From the NCBI RefSeq assembly GCF_057098645.1, contig NZ_CM169472.1: DNA of 64,000 bases; one strand, 5' to 3'. Shown here piece after piece: positions 59,793 to 60,618 of this stretch; within the stretch, counting starts at the first letter, position 1; each line of letters starts with the position of its first letter. The notes under the pieces were generated by a model. The model did no database searches. It was given only the letters and a program-made list of their open reading frames with translations, and was not told the DNA's origin. The position numbers and the translations under genes are program-made.

Positions 59793-59960
59793 ACATTTCA
59801 ACCTTCAAAATAAACCCATCTAAATTTCCTTAACAAACATCCCCCTAACATGGCAACAAAAATTAGAAATGAACTCTTGCTTTTTGTATCTGGCAACTAA
59901 TTCATCCTTCCAGCATCCCATCAAACGAACGTTTACGAACTATAACGCAGGTATTACCGG

Positions 59961-60125
59961 TCACTCGATATCTGGAGATACAGACGTATCAACATGATTG
60001 AGCGGCATACGATACTGCTTCCATGCCGCCAGTAACGATGTCTGCTCATCCGTCGCAATATCTAAATCTGCAGCATCCTGAAGTGGTGCGATATACTCAC
60101 TGATTACAAGTACCAGACCGATAGA
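59961..60125 (-). pseudogene. tfa: Remnant of a lambdoid tail fibre assembly gene (tfa), C-terminal ~54 codons
   Basis: Manual reverse-strand translation gives [58 protein letters not shown], resembling the lambda Tfa C-terminus; no start codon or N-terminal part. Confidence 0.7.
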
Positions 60126-60618
60126 TTAAAAAAAACACAATAACACGCTGCATTTAAAACAAAAAATTTTAAATATGATTTAATACAAGCTTTAAGCTTT
60201 TAATTATCAGTTTTATTTATTTTCCAGCAATTGATTAATCAATTGTTTATATACAAATTATTCCTTTTCTTTCTCTCACGCAAAATTCACAAAATATTGT
60301 TGCTGCAATGGACCTGTACAATAGTGAATCACGGTACTTTTCTGTGCACAACGTACTGCAGTTTCTTTACGATTTATAGCTGTACTGTTGAATTATGTAC
60401 AATTTGAATCCATGCATGACGTGTGATGCCTATTGTGCATTTTTCCGAGCCTCTTTTTACTGGGCCGAAGCCGATGATGCTGATAGTCTCGTTCCGGCCA
60501 TGTTCACTTACTACAGTAAAATTAGGGGAATTGCCTTTACATACAATGTTGCACGATTACCCATCATCAACTCCGTTAAAATGTATGAATAGTAACCTTA
60601 TGTCACAGCAAAGACGAA

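Follow-up and report, generated by a model that had tools for sequence, protein, structure and literature searches.

Organization of the effector locus

We analysed a 64-kb stretch of E. coli chromosome (64,000 nt, hereafter the window), of which positions 44000-57900 are 99.8% identical to strain UTME-3. A tRNA-Arg(CCU) gene (argW, 56483-56557) is adjoined by an intact IntS-type integrase gene (intS, 56683-57885, plus strand), beyond which four effector genes lie on the minus strand: nleD (57982-58680), nleH1 (58911-59792, with the ORF finder placing its start at TTG 59801), nleC (60619-61638) and nleB2 (61672-62652). These assignments are taken from the ORF list and from the RefSeq annotation of near-identical DNA. 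Positions 59802-60618 are the exact nleH1-nleC intergenic gap of 817 bp. Read from nleC towards nleH1, this gap holds the 3' flank of the nleC cassette, two gene fossils on opposite strands separated by AT-rich DNA, and a conserved effector-upstream element. The nleC 3' flank (60509-60618, minus strand) accompanies nleC in other genomes: homology to the nleC locus begins at 60476 for 2015C-3107 and at 60373 for Stx2a phage Stx2_EH2201.

The neighbouring nleH1-nleD interval carries a frameshifted scrap of an IS256-family transposase at approximately 58741-58862, called by PGAP in near-identical DNA (locus L001, 6941-7062). It is a further fossil within the effector locus.

A tail fibre assembly gene fossil

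An earlier reading of this DNA, made from the sequence alone, had pointed to a minus-strand frame at 59961-60125 whose translation resembled the C-terminus of lambda Tfa. We reproduced the 54-residue translation and found it to be significantly similar to tail fibre assembly proteins, so that the likeness stands. Searching 50,697 phage records by tblastn matched the frame to 137 of them, and lambda Tfa itself aligned with frame residues 4-54 (51 residues) at 72.5% identity with E values of 1e-16 to 2e-16. The frame also matched positions 80-130/131 of the Pfam family Caudo_TAP (PF02413, E 1.5e-19) and the C-terminal ends of four PHROG families of tail fibre assembly proteins or tail assembly chaperones (E 2e-14 to 7e-10), PHROG 105, 188 and 136 among them. 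With its TGA codon read as tryptophan, the extended translation was 69% identical to lambda Tfa residues 136-193/194 by BLASTP (E 7e-28). What is preserved is the C-terminal quarter of Tfa, with homology beginning at about lambda residue 136-139.

We delimit this 3'-terminal fossil of a lambda-type tail fibre assembly gene, 'tfa, to positions 59940-60107 on the minus strand, corresponding to approximately 55 of approximately 194 codons without a start codon. The first 6 to 8 residues of the frame (SIGLVLV) are not Tfa-like and profile matches begin at residues 7-9, and DNA homology to intact E. coli tfa genes starts near 60103, placing the 5' breakpoint at about 60104-60107. At the other end, homology continues beyond the TGA at 59961-59963 for six more Tfa codons up to a TAG at 59940-59942 (PDIE-stop-PVIPAL-stop). 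A longer, espM2-proximal tfa fragment of phage 2B8 reads PDIEWPIIPAL-stop at the TGA site, and lambda has PDIEWPAVPVME followed by its stop. Because both continue through this point, the TGA is a TGG to TGA nonsense mutation, and the TAG is the ancestral tfa stop.

The absence of a start codon and of an upstream gene body, likewise remarked on before, holds: no ATG, GTG or TTG opens the frame, and in-frame stops lie immediately upstream. The fossil matches the family profile over the C-terminal part of Caudo_TAP only, lacks both the start codon and the N-terminal two-thirds of a complete Tfa ORF, and does not adjoin stf, its upstream neighbours being the AT-rich filler, ykgJ' and nleC. It is a pseudogene fragment and not a functional member of the Tfa family. 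The window copy and the equivalent copy in phage 2B8 differ at five nucleotides, all of them nonsynonymous and one creating an extra stop, a substitution pattern as expected under neutral decay. A promoter and terminator scan of the gap returned nothing above shuffle expectation and nothing on the minus strand upstream of nleH1. Given the missing start codon, two nonsense features, neutral substitutions and the lack of promoter or terminator signals above chance, there is no indication of a 'tfa product. We infer that 'tfa yields no protein and that its only plausible present role would be that of a spacer or homology patch upstream of the nleH1 regulatory element.

The AT-rich segment and the ykgJ' fossil

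The two fossils are separated by 169 bp of AT-rich filler (60108-60276, GC ca. 0.2, no strand assigned). The stretch from about 60120 to 60400 had been described as very AT-rich, which is correct for its larger part, with GC contents of 0.18-0.26 over 60100-60300, but not for 60300-60400, where GC rises to 0.35-0.38, the same as in the neighbouring effector genes. The filler includes an 18-nt perfect palindrome, CAATTGATTAATCAATTG, at 60228-60245. Across the phage and E. coli collections, the only homolog of the filler outside O157-type genomes was found in phage 2B8, which matches it at approximately 75% identity with indels and does not conserve the palindrome. We also considered whether 60108-60352 might be a diverged ecpE-ykgJ spacer and rejected this, as local alignment against K-12, Stx2_EH2201 and PEC422 gave scores at the null level (200 shuffles). 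Within this interval only 60277-60352 is traceable to ykgJ-upstream DNA, through strain 2013C-4081, in which 60277-60391 is contiguous and ykgJ-upstream DNA is joined to ykgJ'.

That nothing convincing occupies the rest of the spacer had been the earlier impression. No credible ORF exists in 60108-60276, but both the conserved element upstream of nleH1 and a second fossil had been overlooked. The latter, ykgJ' (60277-60508, plus strand), corresponds to a PGAP pseudogene in near-identical DNA and consists of 76 bp of phage-type upstream sequence (60277-60352), a K-12-like 5' leader of approximately 43 bp (60353-60394) and the first 38 codons of a YkgJ-family gene (60395-60508). Identity to K-12 ykgJ was 85% over 157 nt (BLASTN, E 6e-46) and 74% over 38 aa at the protein level (BLASTP, E 6e-21). 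The CxxCxxCC motif is degraded to CxxCxxYC (CMTCDAYC), after which homology stops; with 38 homologous codons the fossil falls short of a full-length YkgJ protein of about 109 aa with CxxCxxCC. An NCBIfam search with the three small products gave no match.

The 3' endpoint of ykgJ', K-12 ykgJ codon 38, is also the endpoint of a block of about 308 nt of ykgJ/ecpE-like sequence located beside nleC and dinI in Stx phages. This block appears to be the 309-bp ykgJ/ecpE-derived block of exchangeable effector loci that Nakamura et al. 2021 (PMC8112680) describe as the origin of attB-in-PP_2, a secondary site for phage attachment whose 96 bp are homologous to the spacer between ykgJ and ecpE. A BLAST search with the K-12 ykgJ region against the whole window returned no significant second ykgJ/ecpE-like copy, and no dinI is found downstream of nleD in the window. 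An att pair formed by the 21-bp attB-in-PP_1 or by a second ykgJ/ecpE-like copy was accordingly discarded as a candidate.

Sequence of this kind is also present in lambda, whose b region (OR974322.1, 24170-24259) includes approximately 90 bp of the K-12 ecpE-ykgJ intergenic sequence at 83% identity, as do many lambdoid and Stx phages. Phage homology to the K-12 ecpE-ykgJ spacer repeatedly stops about 35-45 bp upstream of the ykgJ start, near the onset of ykgJ' homology in the window.

A repeated element upstream of effector genes

Between 'tfa and nleH1 lies a conserved effector-upstream element (copy 1, 59825-59907, minus strand), and a second copy is found between an 89-aa tail-fibre ORF and nleB2 (copy 2, 62757-62839, minus strand). 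Copy 1 was matched to copy 2 by local alignment. It contains the boxes TTTTTGTTGCCATGT (also given as TTTTTGTTGYCATGT; 59848-59862) and GGATGTTTGTTA (59831-59842), both of which occur only twice in the 64-kb window, together with a degenerate inverted repeat at 59856-59887. Copy 2 forms a perfect GC-rich hairpin of 13-14 bp followed by TTTTTGTTG. Its predicted RNA fold is stable and terminator-like (-27.9 kcal/mol, z -4.7), while the hairpin of copy 1 is weak (-9.8 kcal/mol, z 0.33). Together, the two copies constitute a direct repeat bracketing the 2.9-kb block nleB2-nleC-ykgJ'-AT-'tfa.

The element could be aligned in six effector loci. Alignable copies were found upstream of nleH in F2_81, 2B8 and a plasmid, as well as upstream of espM2 in 2B8, each located just after the 3' end of a tail gene; positions 11755-11799 of F2_81 align to both window copies. 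Expression of nleH1 and nleB2 is reportedly repressed by H-NS and requires a conserved element with an inverted repeat (review PMC7142665). If any part of the gap matters for function, it is most likely copy 1, at 59825-59907 ahead of nleH1. The hairpin of copy 2, a 14-bp stem followed by a U-run, sits directly after the 89-aa tail-fibre ORF. The activating inverted repeat reported for nle genes may thus double as the terminator of the tail-fibre operon.

The resident tail-fibre end and allelic loci at argW

Upstream of nleB2, an ORF of 89 codons (62829-63098, minus strand) encodes a phage tail fibre C-terminal domain that matches PHROG 576 over positions 1-89 of 89 (E 3.8e-59) and is 93-96% identical to the tail-fibre ends of F2_81, OkiPb01717, 2B8 and Stx phages. 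Approximately 45 bp upstream of the ORF, the stf N-terminal gene is interrupted by an IS3-family element that starts at about 63279 and bears the annotation IS1203 in relatives; the window ends at 64000 inside this element. Together with the stf N-terminal stub, the ORF makes up a tail-fibre remnant at 62829-63278. This remnant, missed previously, is the true resident tail-fibre end of the prophage.

Three different sets of effectors were found behind the same tail-fibre end at argW. The order is stf-89aa-nleG'-nleD-intS in UTME-3, stf-89aa-nleH1-IS256'-nleD-intS in F2_81 and OkiPb01717, and stf-89aa-nleB2-nleC-ykgJ'-AT-'tfa-nleH1-nleD-intS-tRNA-Arg in the window. No 'tfa is present at this argW site in F2_81, OkiPb01717 or UTME-3. 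Homology between the window and F2_81 stops at 59862 and restarts at 62749, with an overlap of approximately 45 bp on the repeated element; the extra block of the window is the 2.9 kb of nleB2-nleC-ykgJ'-AT-'tfa. An exchangeable effector locus (EEL), a term credited to Tobe et al. 2006 (PMC8112680, reference 20), is defined as a cluster of T3SS effector genes that lies downstream of the tail-fibre genes, at one end of a lambda-like prophage, and whose content varies between strains. The proposal that the locus is the EEL of a lambdoid prophage is borne out by this variable content and by the order stf-89aa-effectors-intS-tRNA-Arg.

Distribution of the gap and its fossils

In 334 RefSeq E. coli records, most of them O157:H7 or O55:H7, the 817-bp gap recurs with at least 99% identity, and in the O157:H7/O55:H7 carriers it is located at bio-ybhB, not at argW. 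In the raw window the 'tfa frame is unannotated, as had been stated, but PGAP does call the identical sequence of O157:H7 prophage Sp3/CP-933K a pseudogene ("tail fiber assembly protein, missing N-terminus", equivalent to 59961-60116, minus strand). A second PGAP pseudogene ("YkgJ family cysteine cluster protein, missing C-terminus") is equivalent to 60395-60508 on the plus strand. Near-identical genomes thus already carry an annotation of the 'tfa fossil, which also agrees with what has been published on EELs. The exact combination of this EEL with intS and argW was found in no complete RefSeq E. coli genome.

Sp3/CP-933K keeps the last 93 bp of an intS-type gene beside nleD (window 57793-57885, L001 5992-6084), annotated there as "hypothetical protein, missing N-terminus". 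As O157 retains this 93-bp tail of a gene that is complete in the window, the O157 effector block seems to be derived from an argW/IntS-type element.

In phage 2B8, 'tfa agrees with the window copy in its 5' breakpoint, its TGA and its AT-rich leader, and lies behind espM2 instead of nleC. Between the window and 2B8, conservation reaches 97% for 'tfa and for the sequence upstream of nleH1, and the adjacent nleH1 coding sequence is 96.4% identical. The 2B8 genome (LR595859, locus L002; classed Alegriavirus) has two tfa 3' fragments, at 3502-3741 and 5001-5162, of which one precedes espM2 and the other nleH, and behind each of them comes the conserved upstream element. A genome deposited as a phage thus contains stacked 'tfa-effector units. 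A plasmid match, H27, at first suggested a tfa-cif junction and was rejected, since BLAST shows an internally deleted nleH with cif further downstream.

Origin of the gap

Based on these findings, we consider it highly probable that the gap is a non-coding seam joining two formerly separate phage effector cassettes. Both 'tfa and ykgJ' are dead genes, and their breakpoints are common to other genomes and a phage. Along the minus strand, the first cassette would comprise the tail-fibre end, the hairpin element, nleB2 and nleC, with the opposite-strand ykgJ' as its right-hand wall. The second would have the last quarter of tfa as its left-hand wall, followed by the conserved upstream element, nleH1, the IS256 scrap and nleD. 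The gap would then read as right wall of EEL-1, filler, and left wall of EEL-2. Several loci suggest that the canonical lambdoid right end consists of stf and tfa convergent with ykgJ and dinI next to int/att, and effectors would have been inserted between tfa and ykgJ. The fusion of two such right ends could have come about through tandem or prophage-in-prophage integration with a subsequent deletion, or through illegitimate recombination, the deletion or recombination running from the ykgJ upstream region into the middle of tfa of the second phage. The lack of a traceable source for the 169-bp filler counts against an exact reconstruction of the joining event.

Individual parts of this arrangement are found elsewhere. 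Stx2_EH2201 shows the order stf-89aa-nleC, then ykgJ' and dinI on the opposite strand, then att, with the same ykgJ endpoint as the window. At a prophage end in PEC422, tfa and an intact ykgJ-family gene converge, and next to the chromosomal ykgJ of K-12 lies a degraded tfa fragment in convergent orientation. Strain 2013C-4081 carries an independent fusion of ykgJ-upstream DNA to 'tfa, in which espM2 faces ykgJ' on one side of the junction and 'tfa faces dinI and int on the other, with another tfa allele and breakpoint. Seams of this kind therefore recur. The truncation of 'tfa in the window is old, and the fragment moves with the nleH1 cassette, whose left edge it forms, as indicated by the breakpoint and TGA shared with 2B8, by the bio-ybhB carriers and by the absence of the fossil from sister argW prophages. 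The sequence-only reading had further proposed a lambdoid prophage that was later deleted or rearranged. A deletion in this genome is not upheld, since the seam records the joining of cassettes and its breakpoints are shared with 2B8 and O157/O55:H7.

A more specific version of the joining can be offered tentatively. The seam may be what is left of a prophage inside a prophage that has since collapsed: a second lambdoid phage would have integrated into the ykgJ/ecpE-derived secondary att region beside nleC and then been deleted from a point just within that region up to the middle of tfa, leaving only its effector cargo, 'tfa-nleH1-nleD; more generally, tfa 3' ends and the hairpin element might act as recurrent recombination handles for stacking effector cassettes. 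Lambdoid EELs with ykgJ/ecpE-derived att sequences in which effectors accumulate by prophage-in-prophage integration have been described (PMC8112680). The 2013C-4081 fusion and the direct repeat bracketing the nleB2-nleC block are consistent with such a collapse, without being proof of it. The attL/attR pair expected of a recent event is absent, as there is neither a second ykgJ/ecpE copy nor a dinI after nleD.

The AT-rich segment and 'tfa could also have been kept as regulatory DNA of nleH1, serving in H-NS nucleation and silencing or as a long leader. This would be compatible with a fossil origin, and the low GC content of 0.18-0.26, the reported H-NS repression of nleH1 and nleB2 and their dependence on an inverted repeat, and the conservation relative to 2B8 all agree with it. 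Nevertheless, we regard it as unlikely. The AT-rich part is the least conserved segment, with its palindrome not conserved in 2B8, F2_81-type loci express the same nleH1 context without either the AT-rich segment or 'tfa, and the conservation of the flanking parts equals that of nleH1 coding sequence and thus points to a recent common ancestor rather than to constraint. H-NS silencing could in part depend on the AT-rich DNA.

Decay in place would make 'tfa the resident prophage's own tfa gene, left as a remnant after deletion, in this lineage, of the tail-fibre region next to the effectors. This is close to what had been proposed earlier, namely that the frame is a fossil of the phage tail fibre region. 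It has in its favour that EELs sit just downstream of stf/tfa in lambdoid phages (PMC8112680) and that the fragment is a true tfa 3' end. The first part of that proposal, a genuine tfa C-terminal fossil, holds, but the attribution to the resident tail-fibre region does not. As the true tail-fibre end lies upstream of nleB2, 2.7 kb away, 'tfa is not the decayed tfa of the resident phage. In addition, the same breakpoints and nonsense codon recur in 2B8 and at another chromosomal site in O157/O55:H7, and in the sister prophages at argW the 89-aa ORF is followed immediately by nleH1 or nleG, with tfa missing from that position. Taken together, these observations make decay in place very improbable.

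Scarcely credible, finally, is a small RNA (IS009-like) or other functional RNA element upstream of nleH1: the full-model match to Rfam IS009 (RF02111) at 59980-60156 on the minus strand (76.4 bits, E 1.6e-17) scores well below the gathering threshold of 117 bits, its structured part aligns with non-canonical pairs and its 5' third at low posterior probability, no promoter-like or terminator-like site flanks it, and the IS009 consensus is itself tfa coding sequence, with the K-12 founder locus being a degraded tfa fossil beside ykgJ. IS009 itself is a candidate from computational prediction and is not known to have a function. The yagU-ykgJ spacer of K-12 MG1655 (NC_000913.3; locus L009, 1112-1311) scores 202.3 bits against the model and holds a frameshifted tfa C-terminal fossil convergent with ykgJ. 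In light of this fossil at the IS009 founder locus, the K-12 ykgJ region resembles what would remain of the right end of a lambdoid prophage, with 'tfa and ykgJ convergent and a dinI-3'-like sequence further upstream.

Returning to the reading as a seam between cassettes, the 'tfa fragment is a neutral scar which by itself matters little and which hundreds of O157:H7/O55:H7 genomes already list as a pseudogene. It is of more use as a marker: the pair of 'tfa and ykgJ', along with the repeated element, delimits the cassettes and shows that at least two EEL ends went into the four-effector Sp3-type locus. Its position beside an intact IntS gene at argW in the window hints at the source of the O157 effector block.

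Comparison with known systems

Relative to the EEL of O157:H7 prophage Sp3/CP-933K (nleB2-nleC-nleH1-nleD), window positions 57793-63278 are 99% identical, and the difference lies in the location beside intact intS at tRNA-Arg(CCU)/argW instead of bio-ybhB. With the ykgJ/ecpE block of Stx phages, the window shares the end at ykgJ codon 38 and the adjacency to nleC. However, what it keeps is limited to the 157 bp nearest ykgJ, a stretch that sets in 43 bp before the ykgJ start and reaches codon 38, whereas the ecpE/dinI-proximal part of approximately 150 bp is absent and replaced by other sequence, so that the att site itself is probably missing.

Compared with lambda Tfa (orf-194), 'tfa retains the C-terminal Caudo_TAP region at 69-72% identity to residues 136-193. 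It differs in comprising approximately 28% of the gene, in its nonsense codon and in its location inside an effector locus, not beside a tail-fibre gene. The missing N-terminus is a feature in common with the tfa pseudogene fragments of cryptic E. coli prophages, for which we take tfaX and tfaS to be the K-12 names. The tfa-derived sequence shared with Rfam IS009 reflects common tfa ancestry and not a shared RNA function.

In case of the upstream element, the closest counterpart is the nle regulatory inverted repeat (NRIR) upstream of nleH1 and nleB2 (Garcia-Angulo et al. 2012, cited in PMC7142665), reportedly a conserved 13-bp repeat. The window likewise has an element of approximately 80 bp with an inverted repeat upstream of both genes, with arms of 13-14 bp at nleB2, whereas the stem of the nleH1 copy is degenerate. 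Judging from arm length and gene context, the element copies are probably regulatory or terminator-like elements of the NRIR type.
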